Assembly: GCA_964644525.1 (NCBI GenBank)
Contig: CAZXWC010000001.1
Coordinates: 7,489-71,488, forward strand
Direction of reading: 5' to 3'
Length of the DNA: 64,000 bases
Source: an uncultured Peptostreptococcaceae bacterium
GTDB lineage: Bacteria; Bacillota; Clostridia; Peptostreptococcales; BM714
Program-made: the position numbers and the translations under genes
The notes under the pieces: generated by a model
Seen by the model: only the letters and a program-made list of their open reading frames with translations
What the model was told of the DNA's origin: nothing
Database searches by the model: none
Part shown: piece by piece, positions 42,489 through 58,111 of the stretch
Layout of the letters: every line of letters begins with the position of its first letter
How positions within the stretch are numbered: position 1 is the first letter of the stretch

Positions 42489-42489
42489 G

Positions 42490-43050
42490 TCATCCCCCTA
42501 TTTTTTTAAGCTTATAGGCCAAGCTACCAACAGGAAGTCCGACCACATTGAAATAGTCTCCATTTACGGATTCCACCAGGGAAGCACCAAAACCTTGAAT
42601 GGCGTATCCACCAGCCTTCCCCATCGGCTCGCCCGTACCGACATAACGATCTATATCAGAACTGCTTAATTCTTTTATTTTTACGGAAGAATATTCGTAA
42701 TAAATCTCTTTTATGCCTTCGCTTATTATTGCCACTCCGGTATATACCCTGTGCGTCTTTCCGCTTATTCTTTCAAGCATTTCCATTGCATCAGACTCAT
42801 TCGAAGGCTTACCTAAAACCTTGTCAAGAAATACGACTGTATCGGCTCCTATTACAATACTTTCCGGTTTTTTAACAAATACATCCCATGCTTTTTCAAA
42901 AGCCAAAGACATTACCGTTGTTACCGGGTCCTCTTCTTTGATCTTTTCCGATATGTCACTCGGAATTGAAATGAATTCAATACCAAGCGACTTTAGAATA
43001 TCGATTCTTCTCTCCGATGCAGAAGCCAAAACTATTTGCTTTCTATTCAT
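42490..43050 (-). CDS. maf: Maf-like nucleoside triphosphate pyrophosphatase
   Basis: MNRKQIVLASASERRIDILKSLG...GKAGGYAIQG. AGGAGTGA SD before ATG 43050. Confidence 0.9.
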   Translation of the reverse strand: MNRKQIVLASASERRIDILKSLGIEFISIPSDISEKIKEEDPVTTVMSLAFEKAWDVFVKKPESIVIGADTVVFLDKVLGKPSNESDAMEMLERISGKTHRVYTGVAIISEGIKEIYYEYSSVKIKELSSSDIDRYVGTGEPMGKAGGYAIQGFGASLVESVNGDYFNVVGLPVGSLAYKLKKIGG

Positions 43051-43060
43051 AAAATCACTC

Positions 43061-43309
43061 CTACCGTCGAGTAACTGCCAAAAGTCCGGCCAGCCCTCCA
43101 ATAAGTCCCATTACATTTACATTGAAAAGCAGTCCTATATGAAAATCCAGAACATATAATTTTAAAGAAAAATTGTCCACTCCCAAAGGAATGACTTTGG
43201 AAAACAAAGGAACAATGCCAGACAGTGCATTCCCCGCCAAGTTACCGAGAATCATTCCTATGACAACAGCAACCGAAATTGCTAAAACTGACCTGCTTCC
43301 TCTTTTCAT
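43061..43309 (-). CDS. Small membrane protein, DUF4321-like
   Basis: 82 aa with two hydrophobic segments. GGGAGTGAG SD. The position upstream of maf is typical in Clostridia (from memory). Confidence 0.6.
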   Translation of the reverse strand: MKRGSRSVLAISVAVVIGMILGNLAGNALSGIVPLFSKVIPLGVDNFSLKLYVLDFHIGLLFNVNVMGLIGGLAGLLAVTRR

Positions 43310-43412
43310 TACACTCACTCCCAATCCTTGATAAATGTTGAAATTTCAATATTTTAAACTACAATAAGTGTAACATTTAGCATTTGTCATATCAAGCGAT
43401 TTTTAGGGCAAT

Positions 43413-43452
43413 AAAAAAAGCGGAAGCGCCTACTGAAGCGCTTCCGCTTTTT
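43413..43452 (-). terminator. Rho-independent terminator of the rnf operon
   Basis: GCGGAAGCGC-N8-GCGCTTCCGC flanked by A7 and T5. Confidence 0.88.
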
Positions 43453-43456
43453 AATT

Positions 43457-44446
43457 CTATTTGAGTTTTATAGCATCTTTGGGGCATTTTTCAACACAAG
43501 CTCCGCAACCGATGCATTTTTCCACATCAACCTTATGGGGTTTTTTTACTTCTCCCTCAATGGCGTCAACCGGGCAAACTTTAGTACACAGGGTACAGCC
43601 AATGCAAGTTTCCTCGTCAATCTCAGCTTTCTTTCTGTTGTCTATGTTTCCTGCGATGGCACCTGTGGGACATTTTTCAACACAAATCATGCATTCCTTG
43701 CATTTTGTATAGTCAATAACAGCTAAATTGTCTACAACATGTATGGCGTCGAAAGGACAATTTTTTTCGCAAATCTTGCAGCCGATACAACCTACATCAC
43801 AAGATACCTTTACATTCTTGCCTTTATCCTTGCTATTGCAGTCAACTATTACTTCCTGCCCGTAAGGAACAAGTGTTATTACATTTTTAGGGCATGCCTC
43901 AATGCAATTTCCACAGGCTGTGCATTTATCATCAATGACTTCGGCTATGCCTTTGTCATTAATAAAAATTGCATCGAATGGACATACATCAACACAAGTG
44001 CCGAGTCCAAGACATCCGAATGAACAACTTTTACTTCCGCCATTTACTATATTGGCGGCTTTACAATCCTGTATTCCTATATATTCGTATTTTTCTTTTG
44101 CATTGTCACATGTTCCATTGCAAATGACATGAGCAACCATTTTTGTGCTGTCTTCAACAACAAGACCCATGATTTCAGCAATTTTTTCTGCTGTTTCCGT
44201 TCCGCCTACAGGGCATCCGTTTACCTTGGCTTCGCCTTTTGCCACAGCATTGGCAAAACCATCACACCCCGGATATCCGCATCCACCACAATTTGCACCC
44301 GGAAGAACTTCCCTTACAGCAACTGCCTTTGGGTCTATTTCAACTGCAAATTTCTGTGAAGCATAAGCCAAACCGGCTCCAAAAATCAATCCCATTCCAC
44401 CAAGGCTCAAGGTAGAATAAATCAAACCATTAATATTCATATTCAT
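43457..44446 (-). CDS. rnfB: Rnf complex subunit B (polyferredoxin type)
   Basis: N-terminal TM segment, an Fe-S module CGGCGYPGC...C, and six CxxCxxCxxxCP motifs. ATG 44446 lies behind an AGGAGA SD. Confidence 0.9.
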   Translation of the reverse strand: MNMNINGLIYSTLSLGGMGLIFGAGLAYASQKFAVEIDPKAVAVREVLPGANCGGCGYPGCDGFANAVAKGEAKVNGCPVGGTETAEKIAEIMGLVVEDSTKMVAHVICNGTCDNAKEKYEYIGIQDCKAANIVNGGSKSCSFGCLGLGTCVDVCPFDAIFINDKGIAEVIDDKCTACGNCIEACPKNVITLVPYGQEVIVDCNSKDKGKNVKVSCDVGCIGCKICEKNCPFDAIHVVDNLAVIDYTKCKECMICVEKCPTGAIAGNIDNRKKAEIDEETCIGCTLCTKVCPVDAIEGEVKKPHKVDVEKCIGCGACVEKCPKDAIKLK

Positions 44447-44458
44447 CACCCTCTCCTT

Positions 44459-45040
44459 TTAAACTAGTCCCGCAAAGCCTAAAAATGCCATAGACATAAG
44501 GCCTGCAGTGATCAGAGCGATTGGGAAACCTTTAAACGGAGCGGGCACATCCGAAATTGCAAGTCTTTCACGAATTCCGGCAAACAAGATGATTGCCAGG
44601 GAAAAACCTACCGCAGCGCCAAAGGAATGAAAAATCGTCTGGACGAAATTCAATTTATATTGTATGTTCAATAGCGCCAAACCAAGAACAGCACAGTTTG
44701 TAGTTATAAGCGGAAGATATACTCCCAATGCCTGATACAAAACCGGGCTCAATTTTTGAAGCACTATTTCAACAAATTGCACAAGCGCCGCAATTACCAG
44801 TATGAATGCGACAGTCTGCAAATATTCGATATGAAAAAAAACTAAAATGTACTTTTGTACTAGGTATGTAATCATACCCGCCAATGTTATTACAAATGTA
44901 ACGGCCATTCCCATTCCAGTCGCAGTTTCAACCTGTTTTGAAACTCCAAGAAAAGGGCAGATTCCCAAAAATTTCGACATGACGAAGTTGTTTACGAGAA
45001 TCGAACTGACCAGGATAACGAAGATACTAGCGTTTTCCAT
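44459..45040 (-). CDS. rnfA: Rnf complex subunit A
   Basis: 193 aa polytopic protein with the RnfA/NqrE-like FLGICPFLG motif. Confidence 0.9.
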
Positions 45041-45052
45041 TTCAATCCCCCC

Positions 45053-45649
45053 TTATGACAAACTTTTTTTGGTTTTGACAACATTATAAAGAGCCAACAA
45101 AATACCAAGTGCGATGAAGGCTCCCGGAGGAAGTATCATCATCAGAGCCGGTTTGTATGCAAACGGAAGCTGCCATCCAAACAAACTTCCAGCTCCCAGC
45201 AATTCTCTCACAGCTCCCAATACTGTCAGTGCCAATGTAAATCCAAGTCCCATTCCCAAACCGTCGAAAATGGAATCGATTACTGTATTCTTTGATGCAA
45301 AAGCCTCGGCTCTTGCAAGTATTATGCAGTTAACCACAATAAGAGGAATAAAAAGACCCAAAGCCTTGAACAGTGATGGCAGATATCCTTCCATCAGCAT
45401 TCCGACAATCGTAACAAAACTGGCAATTACAACTATAAAGGCCGGTATTCTGATTTTACTCGGTATTATTTTCCTCATCATTGAAATAGCCGCATTGGAA
45501 GCAACCAATACCGCGGTGGCCGCCAAACCCATTCCAACTCCATTTATAGCCGATGTTGTAACCGCCAGAGTTGGACACATGCCTAATAATTGCACGAATA
45601 TAGGATTTTCATCCAATAGTCCATTCTTGAAAATTTTCATTAAATTCAA
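45053..45649 (-). CDS. rnfE: Rnf complex subunit E
   Basis: 198 aa polytopic protein with LLGMCPTLAVT. TTG start 6 nt after GGAGGTGA. Confidence 0.9.
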   Translation of the reverse strand: MNLMKIFKNGLLDENPIFVQLLGMCPTLAVTTSAINGVGMGLAATAVLVASNAAISMMRKIIPSKIRIPAFIVVIASFVTIVGMLMEGYLPSLFKALGLFIPLIVVNCIILARAEAFASKNTVIDSIFDGLGMGLGFTLALTVLGAVRELLGAGSLFGWQLPFAYKPALMMILPPGAFIALGILLALYNVVKTKKSLS

Positions 45650-45669
45650 TATAATTCACCTCCGGAAAG

Positions 45670-46245
45670 TTACAGGCCCGAAACGATCTTGTAAGCTTCA
45701 ACAGCCATGTTGACGCCTTCCGTGACCGCTTTGGACGTTATGGTAGCTCCGGAAATTGCCTGTATTTCATTTCCGGCGGCTCCCGCTTTGACAACCGTCA
45801 ATTCAGATTCAGTGCTTTTACCAGCATACTGCCCGTAAAATTCAGGCAATAGCGCATTGGCTCCCAGGCCCGGTGTCTCCTGATGGTTGCCTACTCTCAT
45901 TCCGGTAATAGTCCCATCCCCCGAGATTCCTGTAATAACCTCAACACTTCCGCCGAATCCGCCCGGCAAGGACTTGACTGTATAACCAACCAATGTGTCT
46001 CCTGAAAGTCCTTCGTAAATCTCGACAACCAGCTCATTTTCAGCCTTTACTTTGTCTATCATATCGGCTTCTATCATTTCAAAAGACTCCGCTTCAGGCA
46101 AGACTTCCTGTCTGGACAATTGGCTTGTCAGTTCCCTTTGCTCAACAATCTTGTCGATGGTGAAATCATAAACAAGAGAAAGCAATCCTGCCGCAACGGC
46201 GCATATTAAAAGTAGAATCAATCCTAATTTGCTGATTTCTTTCAT
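45670..46245 (-). CDS. rnfG: Rnf complex subunit G (FMN-binding)
   Basis: Signal anchor plus an FMN attachment motif (SGATITS). Confidence 0.88.
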   Translation of the reverse strand: MKEISKLGLILLLICAVAAGLLSLVYDFTIDKIVEQRELTSQLSRQEVLPEAESFEMIEADMIDKVKAENELVVEIYEGLSGDTLVGYTVKSLPGGFGGSVEVITGISGDGTITGMRVGNHQETPGLGANALLPEFYGQYAGKSTESELTVVKAGAAGNEIQAISGATITSKAVTEGVNMAVEAYKIVSGL

Positions 46246-47183
46246 TATTTTTTCACACCTCCGAACACATTGGATTTGACATACTTGTCAATCAAAGGCG
46301 TAACAACATTCATGAAGAGAATGGAGAAAGACACGCCTCCTGGGTATCCTCCAAACAATCTGATCACTACTGTGATCAAACCGCATCCAACAGCATATAT
46401 GATCTGCCCCTTTGCCGTCATTGGAGATGACACATAGTCAGTGGCCATGAAAATAGCTCCCAATACGAGTCCTCCGGCAAGCAGATGGAACATCATGTAA
46501 TTGAAATCAAACCCTCCGTAAAGCAATGTCAAAACAGCCACGGTCCCCATGTATGCAAGGGGGATTCTTGGGCTTATCACTCCGCGATATACAAGATAAA
46601 TTCCACCAATCAAAAGGGCCAGTGCCGAAACTTCACCTATGCATCCTCCAACTCTACCTATGAAAAGATTGAAAATGGAAACGCTTTCAGGCACAATCCT
46701 GCTACCCTTTATAAGTGCAAGTGGAGTTGCCTCTGTCACTGCATCGACAGGAAACTTCCATGTAGTCATCTCAACCGGCCATGAAGCTATTAGAAAAACC
46801 CTTGCTGCCAAAGCTGGATTGATAAAGTTGTGTCCCAAACCTCCGAAGGCCTGTTTAGCAATTGCAATTGCAAAAACCGAACCTACTACCGGCATCCAGA
46901 AAGGAACTTCTGGCGGAAGGTTAAGTGCCAGCAAGAGTCCTGTTACTGCCGCACTGTAATCCATTACGGTAATGGCTTGTTTCCTTATGTTTTGTATGAC
47001 TGCTTCCGTCGCCATAGCCGCCGCAACAGACAGCAATACGACAATCAAAGTCTGAAATCCGAAGTAATACATTCCTGCAAGAGTTGCGGGAATAAGAGCT
47101 ATTACAACATCTCTCATTGTTTTATCAGTCGCTTCCTTCGACCTTATATGAGGCGATGAAGTGACTATTAATTTTCTTTCCAT
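46245..47183 (-). CDS. rnfD: Rnf complex subunit D
   Basis: MERKLIVTSSPHIRS... polytopic NqrB/RnfD-like protein. ATG 47183 lies behind AGGAGGG; the ORF-track start at 47309 overlaps rnfC. Confidence 0.9.
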   Translation of the reverse strand: MERKLIVTSSPHIRSKEATDKTMRDVVIALIPATLAGMYYFGFQTLIVVLLSVAAAMATEAVIQNIRKQAITVMDYSAAVTGLLLALNLPPEVPFWMPVVGSVFAIAIAKQAFGGLGHNFINPALAARVFLIASWPVEMTTWKFPVDAVTEATPLALIKGSRIVPESVSIFNLFIGRVGGCIGEVSALALLIGGIYLVYRGVISPRIPLAYMGTVAVLTLLYGGFDFNYMMFHLLAGGLVLGAIFMATDYVSSPMTAKGQIIYAVGCGLITVVIRLFGGYPGGVSFSILFMNVVTPLIDKYVKSNVFGGVKK

Positions 47184-47197
47184 CTTTACCCTCCTGT

Positions 47198-48520
47198 TTA
47201 TTTTGTTTTCCTTCGTTTTGAAAGTATTTCCCTTTTGGCCATTCTTATAGAATGTAGCAATGGCCGTTTCGAAGGACAAATGAAAGAACACGAACCGCAC
47301 TCTATGCAATCCATGGCACTATTCTTTTCAGCCATATCAAACATTCCGTTCAATGAATATGCGCTGATTGCAAACGGTTGTATGAATGAAGGGCATATAT
47401 CTACGCACTTGCCACATCTTATGCAAGGATTAGGTTCAGGTAATCTTGCCTGTTCTTCCGTAAATACCAATACTCCTGAAGTAGTCTTGTTTGAGGGCAA
47501 GTCATCTGTGAATTGAGCAAAACCCATCATGGGACCTCCAAGAATCAGTTTGCCCGGTTCACCTTTGTATCCTCCAGCTTGAGCAATGATTTCACTGATT
47601 CTGGTTCCATTTTTTATCATTATGTTTTTGGGTTCTGAAATCCCGTCACCTGTAACGGTGCATATCCTTTCGATGAGCGGCATTCCAGTCTTGATTGCCT
47701 TTGATATAGCCGACATTGTTGCAACATTGCTCACAACTGCGCCTGCATCCATTGGAAGGGCTCCAGACGGAACTTCTCTTTTTGAACACGCGTAAATCAA
47801 TTGTTTCTCAGATCCTTGTGGATACTTGGTTTTTACAATCACAACCTGAATCCCGGGAAACTCCTTTGCAGCCTCTTTCATTGAAAGGACAGCATCCATC
47901 TTGTTGTTTTCAATGGCTATAAATGCTTTTTCAAGACCCAAAACTTTCATTACGGTTCTTAATCCATAAACAACATCTTCCGGATTCTCAAGCATCAGAC
48001 GATGGTCGGATGTCAAGTACGGCTCGCATTCCGCTCCATTTAAAATAAGTACGTCTATCTTCTTATCCGGAGGAGGCGATAATTTAACCCTGGTTGGGAA
48101 ACCTGCTCCTCCCATTCCGACAATTCCAGCTTCATTGATTATATCGAGTATTTCTTTAGCCTCAAGCGTCTCTATATCCCCCTTGGGAACAACGCTCTCA
48201 TGGACTTCATTCAATCCGTCGGATTCAATTACAATACAAGTCCCAGTCCCGTTAATAATCATCCTTTTTTCAATTTTCTTTACCGTACCGGAAATGCTGC
48301 TATGAACTGGCGCAGATACAAATCCGCCCGCTTCACCAATTTTCTGCCCAACCTTGACTTTTTCGCCAACTTCCACAATTGCCTTGCAAGGTGCGCCGAT
48401 GTGTTGCTGAAGGGGAATTACTACGATTTCAGGTTCCAAAGCTTTCTCCACCGGTAAATGTTCTGTCATTTCTTTACTGTGTGGAGGATGAATGCCTCCC
48501 CTGAATGATAAAAGATTCAT
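47198..48520 (-). CDS. rnfC: Rnf complex subunit C
   Basis: 440 aa: MNLLSFRGGIHPPH..., an NADH/FMN-binding GMGGAGFP motif, and two 4Fe-4S motifs (CIRCGKCVDICP, CIECGSCSFICP). Confidence 0.93.
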   Translation of the reverse strand: MNLLSFRGGIHPPHSKEMTEHLPVEKALEPEIVVIPLQQHIGAPCKAIVEVGEKVKVGQKIGEAGGFVSAPVHSSISGTVKKIEKRMIINGTGTCIVIESDGLNEVHESVVPKGDIETLEAKEILDIINEAGIVGMGGAGFPTRVKLSPPPDKKIDVLILNGAECEPYLTSDHRLMLENPEDVVYGLRTVMKVLGLEKAFIAIENNKMDAVLSMKEAAKEFPGIQVVIVKTKYPQGSEKQLIYACSKREVPSGALPMDAGAVVSNVATMSAISKAIKTGMPLIERICTVTGDGISEPKNIMIKNGTRISEIIAQAGGYKGEPGKLILGGPMMGFAQFTDDLPSNKTTSGVLVFTEEQARLPEPNPCIRCGKCVDICPSFIQPFAISAYSLNGMFDMAEKNSAMDCIECGSCSFICPSKRPLLHSIRMAKREILSKRRKTK

Positions 48521-48561
48521 TGTTACTCACCCCTTTATAAATAGTCGTCACATTTATATTC

Positions 48562-48567
48562 ATTATA
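48562..48567 (-). promoter_or_regulatory. Candidate -10 box (TATAAT) upstream of rnfC
   Basis: TATAAT on the minus strand about 40 nt upstream of the rnfC ATG. The -35 region is weak (TTATAT). Confidence 0.4.
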
Positions 48568-48712
48568 CCGCCAAACAAGTTGCAATATAACTAATACCAT
48601 GCGATCAAAAAAACACAAAAAAAAAACATATAGTCCATTAACATAGTATCTTTAAAGGATTTTAAAGTCAATCATTGTTAATTGCGTAACGAAAAACAAA
48701 AACAATTTTAAT

Positions 48713-49255
48713 TCACTGTTTTATTTTTTCTAGGCCTTCTTTTACGTGGTCTCTTATCCAACAAATAACATCGTTATTGTTCAAAGGTACATCGCCCAAT
48801 ACTTTTTTTATTTCCCTTGTGTCCAAAGTAAAGCATTTTTCGCCCACATTATGACTGTATATGAAATCGACGTTTATATCCGATATAACAACGGTAACCA
48901 CAGTATCTACAATATTGCCGAGAGGCGCGCGGTCTATATGGTCATATCTGAATGATGCTTCAAGTTCCGTTCCTTTTCCTGCTTCCGATCTCATGTTGAA
49001 CTTCCCATCACAATTTTCTGCTGCGGATTTAAGCATTGGAATCCCCAATCCGACTTTTCTTGTAGTCCTGCTGGTGTAAAAAGGATTAATCACTTTTTTC
49101 AGAGTTTCCTCATCCATGCCTTTTCCGTCATCTTTTATGCGTATTGAAAAAATATTCTTCTCTATGTTTTCACAAATCTCGATTTCAACCAGTTTTGAAT
49201 CGGCATGAACCGAATTTTGAGCTATATCCAATATATGCATCGACAATTCTTTCAT
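48713..49255 (-). CDS. GHKL-type ATP-binding protein (HATPase_c only, 180 aa), cassette gene 6
   Basis: N box HILDIAQNS, G1 DDGKGM and G2 GLGIPM. No HisKA, DHp or TM region. The start overlaps the PHP stop (TAATG). Confidence 0.8.
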   Translation of the reverse strand: MKELSMHILDIAQNSVHADSKLVEIEICENIEKNIFSIRIKDDGKGMDEETLKKVINPFYTSRTTRKVGLGIPMLKSAAENCDGKFNMRSEAGKGTELEASFRYDHIDRAPLGNIVDTVVTVVISDINVDFIYSHNVGEKCFTLDTREIKKVLGDVPLNNNDVICWIRDHVKEGLEKIKQ

Positions 49256-49983
49256 TATGATTCCCCCTCGTTGCTTTTTCTCAAAGCTTTGAATATGTTT
49301 TCAATGTTTTTTTCATCAACTTCCAAGTAATTGTCGCACTCCGAAATATCGTGAAGATAATGGGCATCCGAATTTAAAAGAAAGCGGTAGTTTTTATACA
49401 TCGGGTTCTTCTCTTTAAATTTCTCTTGACTTGTCTTTTTAGAAAGCTCCAATGCATCAACCTTCAAGTCGGGTGGCAAAAAGCCAAGATTGGCAATCAG
49501 GCTGAAGGCCTTTCTGTCGATGTGAGCTGGTACTGCAATCCCTTTGTGCCTATGCGCCAATTCAACCAATGCATAAATATTTAAATCTATCGAATGTATC
49601 AAGAGGCGTTTTTCCACACCTGTCAACTCGTCATTCTCGTCTAATATCAATTGCCTGCCCAAAAGTTCTTCGGAATTCGGAATCCATTCAAAGTGCCTCT
49701 TGAGTTCATCCTCAAACATTTTTACGCTATCAATCGTTTCAAACAAACAAAGGACATGCACTTCCTCTTTCGTCTGTACTTCCATTCCCGGAACCACTAT
49801 GATTCCATTTCTTCGGCCCAAGGTCATGCAGGCTTGGCAATTTGCAGCATTGTTGTGGTCTGTTACCGCAATCGCATCAAGCCCCTTCAAAAGAGACATA
49901 TTTATTATGTTGTTAGGAGTCATATCCTCGTCTCCACACGGTGACAAAGCAGAATGAATATGAAAATCATAATAAAGCTTCAT
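49255..49983 (-). CDS. PHP-domain phosphoesterase, cassette gene 5
   Basis: MKLYYDFHIHSALSPCGD...VTDHN...SDAHY (PHP metal-binding His/Asp pattern). ATG 49983 overlaps the upstream stop (TAATG); the ORF-track start at 50043 is an extension. Confidence 0.8.
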   Translation of the reverse strand: MKLYYDFHIHSALSPCGDEDMTPNNIINMSLLKGLDAIAVTDHNNAANCQACMTLGRRNGIIVVPGMEVQTKEEVHVLCLFETIDSVKMFEDELKRHFEWIPNSEELLGRQLILDENDELTGVEKRLLIHSIDLNIYALVELAHRHKGIAVPAHIDRKAFSLIANLGFLPPDLKVDALELSKKTSQEKFKEKNPMYKNYRFLLNSDAHYLHDISECDNYLEVDEKNIENIFKALRKSNEGES

Positions 49984-50315
49984 TACATTCCCAGCTCTTT
50001 GAGTTTGCATGCCAATGTAAAGCTGTCTAGTTCCGAAGTGCAAACAACAATATTTTCTTCGTCCGCTTTAGCCAAGGTATCCTCCTCCACTTCAATGGAT
50101 TCAGGCACTATTATCATGGGCATCTCAAGAAGCGATGCAACAGCAATTATGTTCAGGTGTGTCTGAACGGTAATCCAAATATCGCCTTTGCTGCCGTTAG
50201 CCATTACCCAACTCAAAAGATCGCAAATGTAAACTCCGTCAACGGTTTTTGTTGAATCTTTTTCACCACTGGCTTGCTCCAATTTCAATTCCTCAATAAT
50301 CTCATTGATGATCAT
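49983..50315 (-). CDS. DRTGG-domain protein B (110 aa), cassette gene 4
   Basis: Paralogous to the 118-aa protein at 52026..52382 (CDLLSWVMA vs CDLMSDVLA; LNIIAVASLLEMPMIIV vs LQVIRTAEMLDLSNIVF). 14-nt overlap with the upstream gene. Confidence 0.7.
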   Translation of the reverse strand: MIINEIIEELKLEQASGEKDSTKTVDGVYICDLLSWVMANGSKGDIWITVQTHLNIIAVASLLEMPMIIVPESIEVEEDTLAKADEENIVVCTSELDSFTLACKLKELGM

Positions 50316-51576
50316 TTTCAGCCTCCTGTCCTTTTCTTATTATGCAATCGTCTATTGAAGCCTCTCCGCGTACAATATCCTCCGCCAAAGCTCTGCAACT
50401 TGGGGCTCCACATGTTCCGCAATCTATTCCCGGCAATTGCTTGTATATCTTTTCTATCATATCCATCTTGTTGATTGCAACACGTATGTCCGAATCCAAT
50501 TTCATTACATTTTTGGGTTTGATGTCGTCTACCCAATCTTTCATTTCTAAATTGATTTTTTCAATTGCTTTTTCCTTATTTATCACTTCTATTTGACTCT
50601 CTCCGATTTCTTCAGAAATACGTCTGATTCTCGCTTTTGCAATAAATGAATTTTCCATTGTAAGCGGACCTCCTATGCACCCGTTTACACATGCATAGCC
50701 CTCGAAAAAATCAACATCGTTAAGCTTCCCGAGTTCCATTCCCTCCAAAACTTCAATTACATTTTCTATGCCGTCAACAGCAAGATAATTTTTGGCTTTT
50801 ATGCTGAAACTTTGTCCATTCGCTTTTGCCCACCCGATTCCAACACTTGATGAATTCTGTACCTGCTTTCTTATCTCGACATCAGGATAAATCTTCAAAA
50901 TCTTTGAGTACACCGATTCTATTGAAATGGCTTTGTCGACATATGACTTCCTTATTCCAACCGGATTCTTGATGCTTGTTATCTTGGCTGGGCACTCTGT
51001 TACGTAAAATGTCCCTATGTCCTCCATAGCAAGTCCGGTTTTTTCTACAGCTTCACGTTTTGCAAACCTTGCAGCTATTTCCATTGGCGTTTCAAGTTTG
51101 ATTATCCTATCTATCAGTGAAGGAAATCTTATTTGAATAAGCCTTATTATCGCAGGGCAGAGTGTCGAAATAAGCGGGCCGTCTTTTTCTTTTTTCTCCA
51201 ATCTGTCTTTCAATGCTATGGATAGATAGTCAGCGGCCTTTGCCACATCATAAACCTCATCGAAGCCCAAATCATAAAATGAATTAAATATTTTATTGAT
51301 TTTTTTGCTCAAATGAAACTGTCCATAAATAGGAATTGAAACCAGCGCTATATTGTATTTGTAGTTTTTCATATCCGACAATTCATCCGTCAGCGCCCTT
51401 TTCGCATGGTATGGGCATACTCTTATGCACTCACCACAATCTATGCAGCGTTCATTTATAATTTCCGCTTTCCCGTTTCGCAAACGTATTGCCTCTGTAG
51501 GACATCTTTTCAAACAATTAGTGCATCCGTTGCACTTTGTTATATCCAAATTGACTGAATGCCAATAATTTTCCAT
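50302..51576 (-). CDS. [FeFe]-hydrogenase-like Fe-S protein (2x4Fe-4S ferredoxin N-terminus, Fe_hyd_lg_C-like core, C-terminal RnfB-type Fe-S module), putative sensor, cassette gene 3
   Basis: CNGCTNCLKRCP and CIDCGECIRVCP at the N-terminus. H-cluster-like motifs STLCPAI, VTECPAK and ACVNGCIGGP. C-terminal CGTCGAPSC...C. ATG 51576 lies 7 nt after GGAGGGAA. Confidence 0.8.
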   Translation of the reverse strand: MENYWHSVNLDITKCNGCTNCLKRCPTEAIRLRNGKAEIINERCIDCGECIRVCPYHAKRALTDELSDMKNYKYNIALVSIPIYGQFHLSKKINKIFNSFYDLGFDEVYDVAKAADYLSIALKDRLEKKEKDGPLISTLCPAIIRLIQIRFPSLIDRIIKLETPMEIAARFAKREAVEKTGLAMEDIGTFYVTECPAKITSIKNPVGIRKSYVDKAISIESVYSKILKIYPDVEIRKQVQNSSSVGIGWAKANGQSFSIKAKNYLAVDGIENVIEVLEGMELGKLNDVDFFEGYACVNGCIGGPLTMENSFIAKARIRRISEEIGESQIEVINKEKAIEKINLEMKDWVDDIKPKNVMKLDSDIRVAINKMDMIEKIYKQLPGIDCGTCGAPSCRALAEDIVRGEASIDDCIIRKGQEAENDHQ

Positions 51577-51589
51577 CAAATTCCCTCCA

Positions 51590-52021
51590 TCAAATATTAA
51601 AAATCATTTCCACTTTCGTTTCCGCTCCCTTGGAAGATTCAATACTGAATTGGTCACTTGTTCTTTTCATGTTAGGCAATCCCATACCAGCTCCAAAACC
51701 CATTTCTCGCGCTTCATTGGAAGCCGTGGAAAATCCTTTCTTCATAGCCTTTTCAAGATTTTCAATTCCATTGCCATTATCATGGGCTATTACAATTATT
51801 TTATCGTGTGAGATTTCTGTTGTGATTTTACCTCCTTCAGAATGAATCACTATGTTTATTTCTGACTCGTAAGCCGCTATTGCAATCCTTCTTACCACAG
51901 ACGCTTCGATACCTATTTGATTTAGCACTTTTTTGATATTGCTTGAAGCAAGGCCTGCCTTGGAAAACTCCTCTTTACCCACCTCATATTCAAGTTTTAT
52001 AGTCTTTTCCGATTCAACCAT
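51590..52021 (-). CDS. RsbW/SpoIIAB-like anti-sigma-type serine kinase fold (GHKL ATPase, 143 aa), cassette gene 2
   Basis: ESEINIVIHS (N box-like), HDNGNGI (G1) and GFGAGMGLPN (G2). AAGGGGAA SD. Confidence 0.75.
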   Translation of the reverse strand: MVESEKTIKLEYEVGKEEFSKAGLASSNIKKVLNQIGIEASVVRRIAIAAYESEINIVIHSEGGKITTEISHDKIIVIAHDNGNGIENLEKAMKKGFSTASNEAREMGFGAGMGLPNMKRTSDQFSIESSKGAETKVEMIFNI

Positions 52022-52025
52022 ATGA

Positions 52026-52382
52026 TTATTCCCCTTCTATTTTTATTGCGCCAAGTCTGCTCTTGTAAAGTAAACCGCTTGCTTCAAATAAAGTATGCCT
52101 GACTCTCATTAAAACCATCTTCTTTTCTTTTGCCAATTTGCACACATCATCATCCGGATTTTTCCCTCTTACAAATACAATGTTGGACAAATCGAGCATT
52201 TCCGCAGTCCTTATTACCTGTAAATTAGTAAGGCCTGTCAGAAGAAGGACCTTTTCATCCACAAAAGCCAATACATCGCTCATCAAATCACATGAGAAAG
52301 CCGCTTCAACTTCCCTGTCCATATACTCTTCTCCTGCCAGTATTTCAGCATCAAGTATTTCTTTTACTTCTCTAAGTAACAT
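52026..52382 (-). CDS. DRTGG-domain protein A (118 aa), cassette gene 1
   Basis: VLLLTGLTNLQVIRTAEML core. Paralog of 49983..50315. AAAGGGGAA SD. Sits 12 nt after the upstream gene. Confidence 0.7.
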   Translation of the reverse strand: MLLREVKEILDAEILAGEEYMDREVEAAFSCDLMSDVLAFVDEKVLLLTGLTNLQVIRTAEMLDLSNIVFVRGKNPDDDVCKLAKEKKMVLMRVRHTLFEASGLLYKSRLGAIKIEGE

Positions 52383-52394
52383 CGCAATTCCCCT

Positions 52395-53303
52395 TTAACT
52401 AACATTTCTAATTCCATTTATAAAAATATCCGACAAGTCGTTAATGCCTTCTTGCTTTTCCATTTCTGGAATTTTAGCCAGAACTGCTATTGACGATTCA
52501 TACCAATCTATTAAACCTGGAAAAAACACGCCTCCCGAATCAAAATCCTCAAGCCTTTTTTTCATGCTTTCCAGCTCATTCAACTTCATTGAGCTTGTTT
52601 CAACCAGTTCTTCCCTAGACAAGTTTGATTTCAAATATGCCACATAATCAGATTGCGCTTCACCAATTATTGAAAGAGCCCTCTCGTAATCATTTATGCA
52701 TCCAATCGCTTTTTTCTCTTTTTCCGACTCGTAAGTAAATTCAGTTGTCTTTTCAACACTGTACAAAAAAGCGTCGTCTGCAATATTCTTTGCATCTTTT
52801 TTAAAATATTCCCCCAGAGTGCTGTCTGCGTAAACGAAATTCAAAACCTTGAAGTTTTTATCCTCTAAAATAGTACCGCGTTCTCCTTTTTTCTCCAATT
52901 CCAGCAAAAACTTTTCCGCGTTTTCCCTAGTCGAAAAACTGCCTAATTGATAGGCATATAAGTTTACACTGACTTGCTTGAACTTCACCTCAGACTGTTT
53001 GCTTACATCTTCAGAATCCGTTTGCAAGGGTTTCGCAGTATCAACTTCTTCAATTTCTTCAAATGGTTTTTTAATCATGTCCGAAACTTCCGTTGCTTGT
53101 TCTTCGTCATCTCCAGAATTTGTAATTTCTTCTCCTGTCTCTTCGGCTGGATTGAGATTTTCGCTTCCCAAAAGCATAAATTTAACTCCGTAAAAACCAA
53201 GCAATGCCGAAATTAAACATAAAAACAAAATTGAAAAAATAAACCTTCCTCTTCTGCTTCTTTTCTTTCTTTTGCTTGTTTTACTTTTATATCTTTGAGC
53301 CAT
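52395..53303 (-). CDS. Membrane-anchored protein with SPOR-like domain (302 aa)
   Basis: Basic N-terminus, one TM segment, an acidic linker, then YAYQLGSFSTRENAEKFLLELEKKG (SPOR-like signature). The C-terminal half is unassigned. Confidence 0.55.
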   Translation of the reverse strand: MAQRYKSKTSKRKKRSRRGRFIFSILFLCLISALLGFYGVKFMLLGSENLNPAEETGEEITNSGDDEEQATEVSDMIKKPFEEIEEVDTAKPLQTDSEDVSKQSEVKFKQVSVNLYAYQLGSFSTRENAEKFLLELEKKGERGTILEDKNFKVLNFVYADSTLGEYFKKDAKNIADDAFLYSVEKTTEFTYESEKEKKAIGCINDYERALSIIGEAQSDYVAYLKSNLSREELVETSSMKLNELESMKKRLEDFDSGGVFFPGLIDWYESSIAVLAKIPEMEKQEGINDLSDIFINGIRNVS

Positions 53304-53338
53304 AATATCATCTCCGCTTCGTTAATATTATATCATAT

Positions 53339-54820
53339 CTATATGTTTTTATAGTCCAGGATTTTTTTGGTTTTCATCTTTCTTTCCGCCATTTCAAGCG
53401 GTGAATCAATATAGTCCTTTGAATTCTTATAATTTGCTGCTCTCAGTATTCTGTTGTCTTCAAGCGATACAAATTTTGTCATCACTCCCGCTCCGAAAGC
53501 GATTACAGTTTGAAGATCGTTCATCATCCGCATGTTGTAGATGCATGCCTTTCCTGCTTTTGCATAGCCTATATTCTCCATATTTCCCAGCATATACTTT
53601 TGCCTGTACATATAATACGGCTCCATCCCAAGCAAAACTGCTCCTTTTTCCGCAAGCTTTATCATATGGGCAACAGAATTCTCATCAGGCAGCATTTTTA
53701 AAACCGAGCTCTTTCTCATTTCTGAATTCTTCTTCAAAGCCAGTGTATGGACCGTCAAGTTGTCGGGTTTTATTTTATATACATTTTCCATTGTCAATTC
53801 CATTTCACTGATGTTTTCTCCAGGGAGTCCAACTATCAGATCCATATTGACTGAATTAAAACCGTATTGCCTGACCATTTCCCAAACTTTATGGACATCC
53901 TCCGATGTATGCCCCCTTCTAACGATTTCGAGCGTCTTGTTGTTGAATGTTTGAGGATTTACGCTTATTCTATCCACCCCTGACTCCTTCAATACAGATA
54001 ACTTGTGTTTATCTATGGTGTCCGGCCTCCCGGCTTCAACGGTAAATTCCTTCAGTCTGCTTAAATCAAGTGTGCCATGCAAAACATCCATAACTTCCTT
54101 CAGATGGCTGGCTGAAAGTTCCGTTGGTGTTCCTCCGCCAATATAAACCGTTTCAATTTCATAAGGTTCAATTTCTTTTGCGTAGCTTCTTATTTCCAAA
54201 GCCAAAGCCTTAACGTATTTATCTTTTATTTCATTACCTGCATTCACCTGGGTTGGAAAAGAGCAATACAGGCATTTGCTGGGACAAAAAGGTATTCCTA
54301 TATAAACTGAAATTTTATTTGGATCGGGAGGATAAATAAAATTTTGCTCCAAACGTGCAACCCTCATTAGCAGATTTATTTTTTCTTTTGAAATCAAATA
54401 TTCGTTTTTCAATTTCCGCCTTATGTCTTCCCGCTTCATTCCGCTTTGAATCATTTCATGAACAAGTTTTGAAGGCTTTATTCCAGTAAGCGTACCCCAT
54501 GGAAGAATATTTGCGCTTTTGTCCCCCAAAATGGTCTTAATCATTAAATGCTTCAGCTTACTGCGAACTTGCCTTTTGTTTTCACGCTCGTCCCCTGACG
54601 ATTGCATGACTGTTTCGTGTTTTTCAAAAGTTTCGTTTTTGGGATCCCTCCATACCACCCTCATAGAAAATACATCGTCTTCTCTATTGTAGATAATTGC
54701 CAAAAAAGGACCGAATGCATCCAGGTCCCTTGTCTCTTCTAATTCTTCTGTTTTAAAAATAGCCTTTGCCAACGCTTCTATATCGTAGCGATATGTTGAA
54801 TCCGTCATATATATCTTCAT
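53339..54820 (-). CDS. hemZ: Coproporphyrinogen dehydrogenase HemZ-type radical SAM protein
   Basis: 493 aa with GIPFCPSKCLYCSF (CX3CX2C) after a roughly 160-aa N-terminal extension typical of HemZ. Confidence 0.8.
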   Translation of the reverse strand: MKIYMTDSTYRYDIEALAKAIFKTEELEETRDLDAFGPFLAIIYNREDDVFSMRVVWRDPKNETFEKHETVMQSSGDERENKRQVRSKLKHLMIKTILGDKSANILPWGTLTGIKPSKLVHEMIQSGMKREDIRRKLKNEYLISKEKINLLMRVARLEQNFIYPPDPNKISVYIGIPFCPSKCLYCSFPTQVNAGNEIKDKYVKALALEIRSYAKEIEPYEIETVYIGGGTPTELSASHLKEVMDVLHGTLDLSRLKEFTVEAGRPDTIDKHKLSVLKESGVDRISVNPQTFNNKTLEIVRRGHTSEDVHKVWEMVRQYGFNSVNMDLIVGLPGENISEMELTMENVYKIKPDNLTVHTLALKKNSEMRKSSVLKMLPDENSVAHMIKLAEKGAVLLGMEPYYMYRQKYMLGNMENIGYAKAGKACIYNMRMMNDLQTVIAFGAGVMTKFVSLEDNRILRAANYKNSKDYIDSPLEMAERKMKTKKILDYKNI

Positions 54821-54824
54821 TAAA

Positions 54825-55457
54825 TCATTTCCTCATCTGCAATATGAATGGATTGCTTTTTCTTTCAATTCCTATTGTTGTTTCAGGTCCATGGCCAGGA
54901 AATACCCTTGTATCATCCGAAAGTTTCATGAGTTTATCCATTATCGAAGACATCAATGCTCCCATCGAACCCTTATCTAAATCCGTTCTTCCAATTGAGC
55001 CTCTGAAAAGAGTGTCACCCGAAAAAAGAGCGTCCTCGACTTTTAAACATATTCCTCCCGCAGAGTGTCCGGGAGTATGAATTACTAGGGCATTTATTTC
55101 ATCTACCCTTACGGTATCGCCTTCTTTCAACAAACCGTCTTCATGGAAGCTTATGATATTGCCTCCAGACATTGCCGACATGTTTCTTTCGGCATCATGC
55201 AACATGTATGCGTCTTTTTTGTGAATCAGTATCTCTGCATTTGTTATTCGCCTTAGTTCTTCGGCTGCCCCAATATGATCCAGATGTCCGTGTGTCAAAA
55301 TTATTTTTTTAGCTTTAAGCTTACGCTTTTGTAAATATCGGACTATGTCTTTCACATTGCCACCCGGATCTACAATCATGGCTTCATTCAATTCCCCGCT
55401 ATTAACAATATAGCAATTTGCTGCATAAATTCCTGTTACAAAACGTTCAATGTTCAT
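54825..55457 (-). CDS. MBL-fold metallo-hydrolase (glyoxalase II-like)
   Basis: LTHGHLDHIG motif. ATG 55457 lies behind an AGGTGGTG SD; the ORF-track start at 55490 overlaps dtd. Confidence 0.85.
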   Translation of the reverse strand: MNIERFVTGIYAANCYIVNSGELNEAMIVDPGGNVKDIVRYLQKRKLKAKKIILTHGHLDHIGAAEELRRITNAEILIHKKDAYMLHDAERNMSAMSGGNIISFHEDGLLKEGDTVRVDEINALVIHTPGHSAGGICLKVEDALFSGDTLFRGSIGRTDLDKGSMGALMSSIMDKLMKLSDDTRVFPGHGPETTIGIERKSNPFILQMRK

Positions 55458-55467
55458 TTTGCACCAC

Positions 55468-55917
55468 CTAAAATTTTTTATTGCTGTCAACTAGAAGTGT
55501 GACAGGGCCATCATTTTGTATATCCACCATCATGTGCGTTTGAAAAACACCCGTTTCAACATGAATCCCAAGCATCTTAGCCTCTTCAACAAACATTTCG
55601 TAGAGATCGTTTGCCTTGTCTGGCTTTGCAGCATCAGTGAATCCCGGACGCCTTCCTTTCCTGCAATCTGCAAGCAATGTGAACTGAGATATTACAAGCA
55701 TTTCGCCTTTCGTATCCAAAAGCGAAAGATTCATTTTTTCATTCTCGTCTTCGAAAATCCTCAAATTTGCTATTTTTTCCACCATATATTTTGAATCCTT
55801 CGTCCCGTCGCCTTCCTCCACACCCAAAAGCACCGTGAGCCCTTTTTCTATTTCCCCTCTTGTATCTCCATCTACCGAAACGCTAGATCTAGAAACTCTT
55901 TGAACAACAGCTCTCAT
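55468..55917 (-). CDS. dtd: D-aminoacyl-tRNA deacylase
   Basis: [17 protein letters not shown]...SQFTLLAD...GRRP, 149 aa. Confidence 0.95.
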
Positions 55918-55927
55918 ATTTATCCTC

Positions 55928-58111
55928 CTACGAAGTCACACGCTTGACATCCATCACTTCAGGTTTGTTCTTCAATTTCATTATAAGTTTTTCCAATTGG
56001 CTTGTATCAAAAATCAGTATCGTCAAATTTATTATTGCCAATTTTTCTTTTGTTATCTTTGCATTAACTCCAACCACTTCCAAATTTACTTCCGCAATAA
56101 TATTTGTGATTTCGGAAAGCAGACCTTTTCTGTCAGGAGCCACAATCTGTATCCCTGTTTCATAAGAAGTATCCTTGTCTCTGTTCCATTCAACCTCTAT
56201 AAAGCGGTCAGCTGTCTTATCTTCGTTCTTAATATTGGGACAATCTTTGCGATGAATCGTTATTCCCCTGCCACGGGTTATGAAACCTATTATGTCGTCT
56301 CCCGGAACCGGGCTGCAGCATTTGGCAAAACGAACTAATATGCTGTCTATCCCCTTAACAGTTATTCCCTGGTCCTGTTTTCGTTTTTTCTTGTCCGCTT
56401 TATCCGTTTTCTTTTTTGTTTTTTCAGCCAATTCTTCTTCTACAGTCATTTTTTTGTCGTCTTTATGCTCAAACCTGAATTTTTCCTTCAGCTTTGGCAT
56501 GACCTGGTTGAGGGAAATGCCACCATATCCCAAAGATGCATATAAATCTTCAATAGCATTTAGGCTGAGTTTCTTTACTACCGAATTGAGCCAGTCAACC
56601 TGTAGAAGCTCTTTTGTGGAGTAGCCAAGCCTTTTGACTTCCTTTTCGAGCATGTCCTTACCCTTTAAGACATTTTCCTCTTTACGCTCTTTCTTATACC
56701 ATTGCTTTATTTTATTTTTTGCCTGGGTGCTTTTTACAAATTTTAGCCAATCTCTGCTTGGCCCGTTGGAATGGGCGCTGGTTATAACCTCTACTATATT
56801 CCCCGTTTTCAGCTTGTAATCCAAGGGAACGATTCTTCCATCCACTTTGCCTCCTATGCAACTGTTGCCGACTCCTGAATGAATCTTATAGGCAAAGTCA
56901 ACCGGTGTTGAACCCACCGGAAGCTCCACTACGTCCCCTTTTGGCGTAAAAACAAAAACCTGATTAGTAAACAAATCTATCTTGAGGGATTCTACAAATT
57001 CCTTGGGATCTTTTAAGTCTCTTTGCCACTCAAGCATTTGCCTCAGCCATGTGAGTTTCTTATCTATGTTCTCCTCTTCCACCCGGCCTTCCTTGTATTT
57101 CCAATGGGCAGCGATACCGTATTCAGCTATTTTATGCATGTCTTCGGTTCTTATCTGTATTTCAAATGGCTCGCCTTTCGGTCCTATTACCGTAGTATGG
57201 AGAGACTGATACATATTGGTCTTTGGCATTGCTATATAGTCCTTAAACCTGCCGGGTATTGGTTTCCAAAGAGTATGGGCCATACCCAACACTCCATAAC
57301 AATCTTTTATGTTGTCAACAATAACACGTATGGCAGTCAAATCGAATATTTCTTCGAAACTCTTTTTTTGGTAAACCATTTTTTTGTATATGCTGTAAAA
57401 ATGTTTTGGGCGTCCGGTAATTTCATACTTCATTCCCATATCGACCAATGATGCGTCAAGCATTTTTATTACAGTCTTAATGTATTCTTCCCTTTCCTCG
57501 CGTTTTTTATTTACTTTTTCGTTTAGTTCATAATATCCTTCCGGATCTATGAACCTGAGCGAAGTATCTTCAAGCTCCGATTTGATTTTCGATATCCCCA
57601 GCCTATCAGCGATTGGCGCATAAATTTCTATGGTTTCCATGGCCTTTTCTTTTTTCTTTTCTTCATTCATATACTCCAGGGTTCTCATATTGTGAAGCCT
57701 GTCCGCAAGCTTTATTATTATTACACGTATGTCCTTTGCCATAGCGAGGAACATTTTTCTAAGATTTTCTGCCTGCCTTTCTTCTTTTGACTCATATTTC
57801 AAACGCGTAAGTTTAGTAACCCCGTCAACCAGCCAGGCAACTTCCTCTCCGAATTCGGCCGCTATTTCATCATATTCATACTTTGTGTCCTCAAGTACAT
57901 CATGAAGCAAACCAGCAACTATTGTATCATCATCCATTTCAAGTTCTGCCAATATAAGAGCAACCTGCAAGGGGTGCGTAAAATATTTTTCTCCGGATTT
58001 GCGAAGCTGCCCCTCATGGGCACTTTCCGCAAAGTGATAGGCCTTGATAATATTGGTGTATTCAATATTAGGATTATGCTGTTGTATTTGTATAATAAAA
58101 TTCTCCAACAT
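55928..58111 (-). CDS. relA: Bifunctional (p)ppGpp synthetase/hydrolase RelA/SpoT (Rel)
   Basis: HD domain (LLHDVLEDT), synthetase domain, and TGS and ACT C-terminal domains. ATG 58111 lies behind AAGAGGGAAA. A promoter lies inside the ORF-track N-terminal extension. Confidence 0.95.

Follow-up and report, generated by a model that had tools for sequence, protein, structure and literature searches.

[FeFe]-hydrogenases of Group D, also called M2e, are regarded as putative sensory proteins. They possess no PAS domain, carry a C-terminal Cx2Cx4Cx16C cluster and adjoin kinase-like genes and bifurcating hydrogenases, and it is because of these neighbours that they were classed as sensory (PMC3561251, PMC8163306). 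The proton-relay residue Cys299 of the catalytic enzymes is not conserved in M2e, where it is mostly Ala, and both Met of the active site are lost, Met353 being replaced by Ser or Thr (PMC3561251, PMC8163306). The class has been described at least as early as in a comparative-genomics paper of 2012, and biochemical work on it exists since 2020. Here we analyze a member of this family which is encoded in a stretch of 64,000 nucleotides, called the window in the following, from an uncultured Peptostreptococcaceae bacterium (GenBank assembly GCA_964644525.1, contig CAZXWC010000001.1). The gene in question (50302..51579, minus strand), the product of which we call the sensor, lies within a cassette of six genes directly upstream of an rnf operon.

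The model enzyme of Group D is TamHydS from Thermoanaerobacter mathranii, which incorporates [2Fe]adt and reacts with H2 (PMC8163306, PMC11803613). It catalyses H+/H2 interconversion slowly (PMC8163306), its H2 turnover being about a thousand-fold below that of group A, and its residues A137, S191 and L291 occupy the positions of Cys299, Met353 and Met497 (PMC11803613). A proton path specific to Group D, E252-E289-S249-D265, has been proposed, and in the E252V and E252D mutants of TamHydS H2 oxidation was no longer detectable (PMC10407848). The C-terminal Cx2Cx4Cx16C motif has been described for TamHydS too and is a hallmark of the M2e and M2f sensory types (PMC8163306). Spectroscopic work on Group D over several years has dealt with this one enzyme. 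For comparison, the TamHydS protein (435 aa) was reconstructed from DNA that the supplement of PMC13104023 gives in codon-optimised form; the reconstruction matches all 23 published residue numbers and is 99% identical to a database protein.

By its sequence, the protein of the window is a Group D (M2e) homologue. BLASTP against TamHydS gave 52% identity over 413 residues (E 3e-160), and the architecture found by Pfam as well as the predicted fold lead to the same assignment. The open reading frame (ORF) comprises 425 aa from a TTG and is followed here in the residue numbering; the likelier start is an ATG at 51576 (424 aa) with GGAGGG 6 nt upstream, and the initial annotation, which had been made from the DNA sequence without database searches, had likewise let the gene extend to this position. 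The two ferredoxin motifs of the form CxxCxxCxxxCP which had been noticed in that annotation are present as an N-terminal F-domain (aa 16–56, 51412..51534, minus strand) and are recognized by Pfam Fer4 families at aa 10–59 as C16/19/22/26-P27 and C45/48/51/55-P56. They are followed by Fe_hyd_lg_C (PF02906, aa 91–305, E 2.3e-27) and by FeS (PF04060, aa 382–413, E 5.8e-15), the latter covering the C-terminal cluster motif C387-x2-C390-x4-C395-x16-C412 (50344..50421, minus strand). The sensor thus has four Cys-ligated Fe-S sites, namely two N-terminal cubanes, the H-domain cubane and the C-terminal Cx2Cx4Cx16C cubane, and all 16 cluster cysteines, including the eight of the ferredoxin motifs, are invariant in 64 clade relatives. 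Residues of Group D which lie between the domains or flank the clusters (R32, E400/D401 and D386/D411) are shared with TamHydS. No PAS domain was found in the sensor by Pfam, and the protein ends 13 residues past the last cluster Cys. The PAS domain that follows the four-Cys cluster in the HydS proteins of Group C (M2f) is therefore absent, as had been remarked earlier; the supposed anomaly, however, disappears, since Group D is known to be PAS-less. Hydrogenase-like sensors with neither a PAS domain nor Cys299 nor the two Met constitute a class that is already known.

It had also been proposed that three segments of the protein line up with the signatures L1, L2 and L3 of [FeFe]-hydrogenases. 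When the sensor was aligned by phmmer (HMMER) to PDB sequences, including HydA2 of HDCR, HydA1 of T. kivui, CbA5H and CpI, the segments came out in register with these solved [FeFe]-hydrogenases, PLISTLCPAI pairing with PMFTSCCPAW in L1, VTECPAK with VMPCTCK/VMPCIGK in L2 and FFEGYACVNGCIGGP with FVEVMTCPEGCISG in L3. In the L1 motif STLCPAI (51148..51168, minus strand), Leu140 takes the position of the relay residue Cys299 and Cys141 that of a cubane ligand. The L2 motif TECPAK (50983..51000, minus strand) contains Thr194, Glu195, Cys196 and Lys199, the last corresponding to Lys358. The L3 motif EGYACVNGCIGGP (50665..50703, minus strand) contains Glu293, which corresponds to Glu289 of TamHydS, Tyr295 at the position of Met497, Cys297 and the bridging Cys301. 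Gln256 (50812..50814, minus strand) stands at the position of Glu252, the proposed proton relay of TamHydS. The four cubane and bridging cysteines C141, C196, C297 and C301 are thus retained, as the initial annotation had claimed, and its further statements that the relay Cys has become Leu and that L3 keeps its CxxxC while losing Met hold in the alignment. In L2 it was right about Cys and Lys, but its replacement of Met by Glu was one register off, since Met353 corresponds to Thr194 and Pro354 to Glu195.

The fold agrees with these pairings. In an AlphaFold model built from 64 relatives the H-domain reached a pLDDT (predicted local distance difference test) of about 85–97, and a Foldseek comparison of this model, a check that had been suggested beforehand, returned [FeFe]-hydrogenases alone, with probability 1.00 to CpI, CbA5H and HydABC. 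The correspondences with [FeFe]-hydrogenases are real homology and not chance, because they are in register in a homologous alignment and are accompanied by a fold match. Coincidental motifs on a different fold are ruled out, with practically no doubt, by the Pfam score of the H-domain, the HMMER register, the Foldseek result and the identity to TamHydS. The protein nevertheless departs from the catalytic signatures of group A (TSCCPxW, MPCxxKxxE and ExMxCxxGCxxGG), having STLCPAI, TECPAK and EGYACVNGCIGGP instead, and it scores 79.7 bits with the NCBIfam group A model (cutoff 406) and 125.7 bits with the B1 model (cutoff 450). The H-domain is indeed shorter than in group A, owing to internal deletions of several tens of residues, and the whole family shares this feature, TamHydS with its bound H-cluster included. 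The suggestion of a sensor rather than a catalyst agrees with what the field has proposed for Group D, but the loss of Cys and Met and the short H-domain on their own are no argument against an H-cluster, because TamHydS shares them and yet binds [2Fe]adt. As an observation apart, aa 1–56 of the sensor (window 51412–51579) received a pLDDT of 33–43 in AlphaFold2 although no part of the protein is more strongly conserved and the published TamHydS model was reported to be confident throughout; the low values of the ferredoxin domain are probably a limit of cofactor-free modelling and of a shallow alignment.

Compared with the M2e pattern, the loss of Cys299 and the hydroxyl residue at Met353 (Leu140 and Thr194) are as expected, Leu instead of Ala being atypical for the TamHydS-like set. 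The Group D proton pathway, in contrast, is kept only in part: E293 and D269 are present, while Glu252 has become Gln256 and Ser249 has become Ala253. Judged from its residues, the sensor lacks the proton relay of group A as well as that of Group D.

These replacements are shared by a whole branch of the family. We compared the 120 nearest homologues of the window sensor with the 120 nearest homologues of TamHydS, using TamHydS numbering. Position 252 is Gln in 120/120 of the former and Glu in 119/120 of the latter. At position 137, which corresponds to Cys299, the homologues of the window sensor have bulky residues almost throughout (Y55/L39/F24/S2), as opposed to A115/S5 near TamHydS, and position 249 is Val in 110/120 on the one side and Ser in 102/120 on the other. 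The equivalents of Pro354 (position 192; Q80/P24/E15) and of Lys358 (position 196; K92/T19/R4/A4/Q1) vary near the window sensor, whereas Pro and Lys are found in 120/120 of the sequences near TamHydS. A neighbour-joining tree, unbootstrapped and rooted on group A HydA, was calculated from 274 sequences, non-redundant at 80% identity, which stem from the two homologue searches, from 90 fetched loci and from a further search among representatives at 50% identity. It places the window sensor inside the Group D family, in one clade of 48 sequences in which Gln252 occurs in 48/48.

The differences between both types are few and lie close together. In the Glu type, 137 columns show a conservation of at least 80%; only five of these no longer have their consensus residue in the Gln clade (P80, E108, A137, F189 and E252). 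Just two columns, P80 and P192, vary in the Gln clade while showing no variation at all in the Glu type. In the alignment, P80 falls on the Pro in the segment 'APAVR' of group A, which is Pro231 of CpI, and P192 is the equivalent of Pro354. This occurs in a clade which is on the whole less variable than the Glu type, the mean column entropy being 1.30 versus 1.61 bits. In group A the [2Fe] site is lined by Pro231/Ser232, Cys299, Met353/Pro354, Lys358 and Met497 (in part from PMC11803613 and PMC8163306), and in CpI the distance between Cys299 and the adt amine is about 3.5 A (as quoted by PMC11803613). The divergence of the Gln clade is therefore concentrated on the lining of the diiron site, with the cluster cysteines untouched, since the columns P80, A137, P192 and E252 change and the 16 Cys are invariant.

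The Gln252 clade with its bulky residue 137, its relaxed diiron residues and its exchange of HydABC for Rnf is apparently undescribed. No description of an Rnf-linked or Gln252 variant of Group D was found in the open-access full-text literature, which, given this scope, is weak evidence. Published Group D sets include Clostridiisalibacter and Alkaliphilus and probably hold Gln-type sequences already, lumped with the rest. Independently of this branch, a further Group D-like clade was noticed which has Phe or Tyr at the Cys299 position and Arg at the Met497 position and keeps Glu252 (protein representatives P0308, P0315, P0327, P0328, P0338, P0340, P0347 and others). From such sequences, the active site of Group D seems to be more diverse than the literature centred on TamHydS suggests.

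The second difference concerns the genes behind the sensor. In the window the cassette lies entirely on the minus strand and begins with a DRTGG-domain protein of 118 aa (DRTGG 1, 52026..52382; Pfam DRTGG PF07085, E 8.9e-7). The next gene encodes a small GHKL ATPase of 143 aa resembling anti-sigma-factor Ser kinases (GHKL 1, 51590..52021; Pfam HATPase_c and HATPase_c_2), which matches NCBIfam SpoIIAB with E 6e-13, below the family cutoff, and shows the N-box, DxGxG and GxGxG in its translation. The sensor is followed by a second DRTGG-domain protein of 110 aa (DRTGG 2, 49983..50315; Pfam DRTGG E 9e-5, just under the cutoff, and a weak Hpr_kinase_N match) and by a PHP-family phosphoesterase (49255..49983; Pfam PHP E 1.4e-7). 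The latter has about 242 aa if it starts at the ATG at 49983, the listed ORF reaching to 50043; its homologues have 235–241 aa, and the metal motif DFHIHS is present. A second GHKL ATPase of 180 aa, which resembles the catalytic domain of histidine kinases (GHKL 2, 48713..49255; Pfam HATPase_c E 1e-13), ends the series. The order is hence DRTGG, SpoIIAB-like GHKL, sensor, DRTGG, PHP and histidine-kinase-like GHKL; the GHKL and DRTGG neighbours that had been recognized at the outset are seen by Pfam as well, and the PHP gene is added to them. Directly downstream lies the operon rnfC-D-G-E-A-B (43457..48520, minus strand; Pfam match for RnfC, ORFs), in the place where a trimeric bifurcating group A hydrogenase would be expected for M2e.

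For a comparison of the gene order, tblastn with the window proteins and a HydCBA set from Thermoanaerobacter served to annotate 91 related genomic and metagenomic loci, and six loci fetched later (L092–L097) were read from called genes and Pfam. The cassette is conserved nearly everywhere, and the gene after the cassette depends on the type of the sensor. Of about 95 loci with a sensor homologue, most carry DRTGG 1 at this upstream position; nearly all related loci have GHKL 1 immediately upstream of the sensor, and the position of DRTGG 2 is conserved. Sensors of the Glu252 type occur in 72 loci. HydC-GHKL2-Hyd121-HydB-HydA follows directly downstream in 24 of them, so that GHKL 2 is placed between hydC and hydB there and directly before rnfC in the window; in six, a divergent HydCBA is located upstream, and in L090 HydCBA is followed by Rnf. 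The remaining loci of this type either do not extend far enough or show neither hyd nor rnf genes nearby. An rnf operon directly after the cassette was found in none of the 72.

Among the Gln-type sensors, the subgroup with Leu137 shows the order SPOR-cassette-rnfCDGEAB in the lineage of the window, in Caminicella sporogenes, in Brassicibacter mesophilus and in Dethiothermospora, these four lineages being 50–63% identical to each other. The order cassette-rnfCDGEAB was obtained by tblastn in L001–L005, L007 and L012 and from called genes and Pfam in L007, L092 and L095. In a basal Gln subgroup (three metagenome loci, L035:5732–13861, L039:12668–20861 and L047:12580–20997) the cassette is followed by HydC (NuoE-like), GHKL2, the 121-aa protein Hyd121 and HydB (NuoF-like), then by a gap of 0.8–1.1 kb containing a gene of about 177 aa on the opposite strand and no hydA, and finally by rnfCDGEA. 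Such a NuoEF-like NADH module beside Rnf without a hydrogenase subunit is unusual and seems to stand, in evolutionary terms, between the HydABC and the Rnf arrangements. In the subgroup with Tyr or Phe at position 137 (Fusibacter, Helicovermis and others), HydC-Hyd121-HydB-HydA lies upstream and the cassette comes after it. Finally, L097 (7202–10834) contains an orphan Gln-type cassette, with Ser137 and a Gln at the Lys358 position, and no hyd or rnf gene within 8 kb; the cassette can thus exist uncoupled from any obvious target operon.

The flanking genes tie these arrangements together. In Thermoanaerobacter the order is polA-coaE-SLT-QRPT ... cassette-HydCBA-DUF4321-maf-radC-mreBCD, in Caminicella polA-coaE-SLT-QRPT-SLT-SPOR-cassette-rnf-DUF4321-maf-radC-mreBC. 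Because these flanks are syntenic, we conclude that HydABC has been replaced by Rnf downstream of an orthologous cassette, with intermediate orders persisting. A separate observation concerns the neighbouring catalytic subunits: 29/31 bifurcating-type HydA beside Group D cassettes that were searched for the motif have TSCSPGW instead of TSCCPxW (e.g. L010:15760–17505). An assembly oddity could be rejected as the cause, as the solved HydA1 of A. woodii (7q4v_A) has the identical motif; this is a natural variant of the bifurcating HydA type, in which Ser stands for the second of the two adjacent Cys.

Both HydABC and Rnf link the NAD(H) pool to reduced ferredoxin, so that a common controller reading either the redox state of ferredoxin or H2 would make physiological sense. 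We tentatively favour, at a little short of an even chance, a sensor that is non-catalytic and reports the redox state of the ferredoxin pool to a cassette tuning Rnf. The sensor would be the input module of the DRTGG/GHKL/PHP cassette, reading the ferredoxin pool through its chain of cubanes, and it would hand the signal on to its DRTGG, phosphatase and kinase-like partners in a partner-switch-like manner; these partners would in turn tune Rnf as the ferredoxin:NAD+ module that replaces HydABC. Canonical H2 turnover would probably be gone in the Gln clade, and possibly the [2Fe] subsite itself. We lean towards a loss of H2 chemistry because constraint is relaxed at the equivalents of Pro231, Pro354 and Lys358, because bulky residues at the Cys299 site go together with a non-protonatable Gln at the relay position, and because hydA is gone from the linked operon. 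A plain [4Fe-4S] redox reporter, which the initial annotation had mentioned as an alternative, gains support from the Gln relay, the bulky Leu, the relaxed Pro231, Pro354 and Lys358 equivalents and the linkage to Rnf. The complete claim, that a branch of Group D gave up H2 chemistry and was re-used together with its cassette as a redox sensor of the ferredoxin pool controlling Rnf, is one that we would make with more reserve, as we consider it somewhat doubtful.

Several points weigh against this reading, and many of them speak for a genuine H-cluster protein instead, i.e. an H2 sensor as proposed for TamHydS in which Gln256 and Leu140 do no more than block the way out for protons. Such a site might bind or split H2 once and stay in a reduced signalling state, so that the H2 partial pressure would control Rnf and an accumulation of H2 would shift electrons from ferredoxin to NADH. 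The sensor has more than half of its residues in common with TamHydS, for which uptake of [2Fe]adt and a reaction with H2 are described (PMC8163306), and the bridging Cys301, the other three cubane ligands, Lys199, Glu293, Asp269 and a Thr194 typical of M2e, which has Ser or Thr there, are all retained in it. The invariance of the relay Gln would imply a constrained and functional pocket and not a decayed one, and a blocked proton exit could even make a better H2 sensor. Known sensory types tolerate the loss of Cys299 and both Met, and a bulky residue at the Cys299 site is by itself hardly proof of a lost [2Fe] subsite, because a separate clade pairs Phe or Tyr there with Glu252, which urges caution. 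In addition, the Gln clade is not tied exclusively to Rnf, since other members of it (Fusibacter, Helicovermis, L008, L011 and L013) lie just downstream of HydABC. Arguing against an H-cluster, on the other hand, constraint is relaxed exactly at the equivalents of Pro231, Pro354 and Lys358, the residues that border the CN/CO ligands in the enzymes of group A; Leu, Tyr or Phe is found where Cys299 of CpI comes close to the adt amine (PMC11803613), and the linked operon of Rnf-type loci no longer contains hydA. Altogether we regard an H2-sensing H-cluster as a serious possibility, albeit one that we would not expect to hold. For the redox reporter that we favour, it has further to be considered that the cofactor assigned to the Gln clade is a prediction, that many of the counted loci are phylogenetically non-independent, and that the deep branches of the tree are short and without bootstrap, so that the tree was used solely for the clustering of the main Gln group. 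Moreover, the cassette contains no DNA-binding protein, rnf has promoter-like sites of its own, and what suggests a regulation of Rnf is the adjacency of the genes.

The sensor might also be no regulator at all but a slow, physiologically relevant hydrogenase or an electron-transfer subunit feeding Rnf or HydB-like flavoproteins. The low-rate H+/H2 interconversion of TamHydS (PMC8163306) and the location directly upstream of rnf would fit this, and the C-terminal cluster domain shares PF04060 with the N-terminal cluster domain of RnfB. The relay Cys is absent, however, and the Group D relay Glu is Gln, and the gene is always found amid kinase-like, phosphatase and DRTGG genes instead of structural subunits, in L097 even without hyd or rnf neighbours. 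The solved Rnf complexes 7zc6, 8ahx and 9eri were matched via RnfB alone, and no hydrogenase-like Rnf chain was among the PDB matches. We therefore consider a hydrogenase or subunit function very unlikely.

Between the cassette and rnfC of the window lies a spacer of 192 nt (48521..48712, minus strand) with the promoter-like hexamers TTGACT-17-TACTAT at 48671–48643. No terminator-like site was found in this spacer, and an Rfam scan of 42000–56000 gave no match, hence no riboswitch or leader in the gap between cassette and rnfC. Directly after rnfB, a strong hairpin (43415..43452) with a stem of 15 pairs and T/A runs to its left and right probably marks the end of the transcription unit. Downstream of rnf follow maf, radC and ORFs that correspond to MreB, MreC and MreD in size only. 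A SPOR-domain gene (52395–53303) is located directly upstream of the cassette, likewise in Caminicella, Brassicibacter and Dethiothermospora (L007, L092, L095), and in Thermoanaerobacter (L010) an unannotated gene of 263 aa stands in its place. No catalytic hydrogenase and none of the maturase genes hydE, hydF and hydG were found within the 64-kb window. The window does contain selenocysteine machinery, namely selB (15705–17600), selA (17597–19015) and a SelD-like gene of the AIR-synthase family (20796–21743), which fits a Peptostreptococcaceae host fermenting amino acids in the Stickland manner. A protein of 683 aa with an Eco57I-type restriction-modification methylase domain (7962–10013), which adjoins a ComEC-like competence gene (5602–7947), is unrelated to the sensor. 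A search of contigs for genomes carrying the sensor protein led only to five near-identical metagenome-assembled genomes, all from uncultured Peptostreptococcaceae.

The Gln branch represents a natural variant of Group D in which the relay Glu is always Gln, the lining of the diiron site is altered and the neighbouring operon has changed from HydABC to Rnf. It could serve as a comparison set for the question of what the sensor reads, H2 or the redox state of ferredoxin and NADH, for the question of whether the E252 pathway matters in signalling, and for the DRTGG/GHKL/PHP cassette as a general controller of modules balancing ferredoxin and NAD(H) in anaerobic Firmicutes. The regulation of Rnf is poorly understood in amino-acid-fermenting Peptostreptococcaceae and Tissierellales, and the Gln branch could help here. 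If H2 chemistry has been abandoned and Rnf is controlled, Rnf would thereby gain its first proposed dedicated regulator, and the protein would represent a natural bacterial hydrogenase scaffold free of an H-cluster.

With the enzymes of group A (CpI, CrHydA1 and HydA of HydABC) the sensor has in common the fold of the H-domain, the four H-cluster Cys, Lys358 and the Glu of L3. It differs from them in Cys299, Met353, Pro354 and Met497, none of which is met with in the sensor, in Ile at the Pro231 equivalent, in an H-domain that is several tens of residues shorter and in the extra C-terminal cluster. TmHydS from Thermotoga maritima (Group C, M2f) resembles the sensor in its two N-terminal [4Fe-4S] clusters, its H-domain and its C-terminal four-Cys cluster, in the loss of Cys299 and both Met and in a proposed sensory role beside kinase and phosphatase genes (PMC8163306, PMC13104023); unlike the sensor, however, proteins of Group C have a C-terminal PAS domain.

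Nar1 and NARFL (IOP1) are eukaryotic hydrogenase-like proteins without a diiron site which act as factors of cytosolic Fe-S assembly (CIA). By description only, they offer the parallel of a hydrogenase scaffold with cubanes alone, which would be the outcome of the redox-reporter reading. Their N-terminal cluster motif differs, they lack both a C-terminal Cx2Cx4Cx16C domain and a kinase/phosphatase cassette, and the bacterial context and the C-terminal cluster domain of the sensor argue against a membership in this group. The cassette itself might, by analogy, be likened to partner-switching modules such as SpoIIAB/SpoIIAA/SpoIIE and RsbW/RsbV/RsbU, which also combine a small GHKL protein resembling Ser kinases with small single-domain proteins and a phosphatase; in the window, however, the partners are DRTGG instead of STAS proteins, the phosphatase is of the PHP instead of the PP2C type, and no sigma factor is encoded nearby.

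The closest described system is TamHydS. Both proteins share the three-part architecture with the C-terminal cluster motif and without PAS, the loss of Cys299 and Met497, Ser or Thr in place of Met353, and the equivalents of Glu289 and Asp265; both genes are part of a DRTGG-GHKL-sensor-DRTGG-PHP-GHKL cassette in a common chromosomal neighbourhood. From TamHydS to the window sensor, Glu252 is replaced by Gln256, Ser249 by Ala253, Ala137 by Leu140, Pro80 by Ile82, Pro192 by Glu195, Leu291 by Tyr295 and Ser191 by Thr194, while Lys196 is kept as Lys199, and the cassette, which in the case of TamHydS is followed by hydC-(GHKL)-hydD-hydB-hydA, is followed by rnfCDGEAB in the window.

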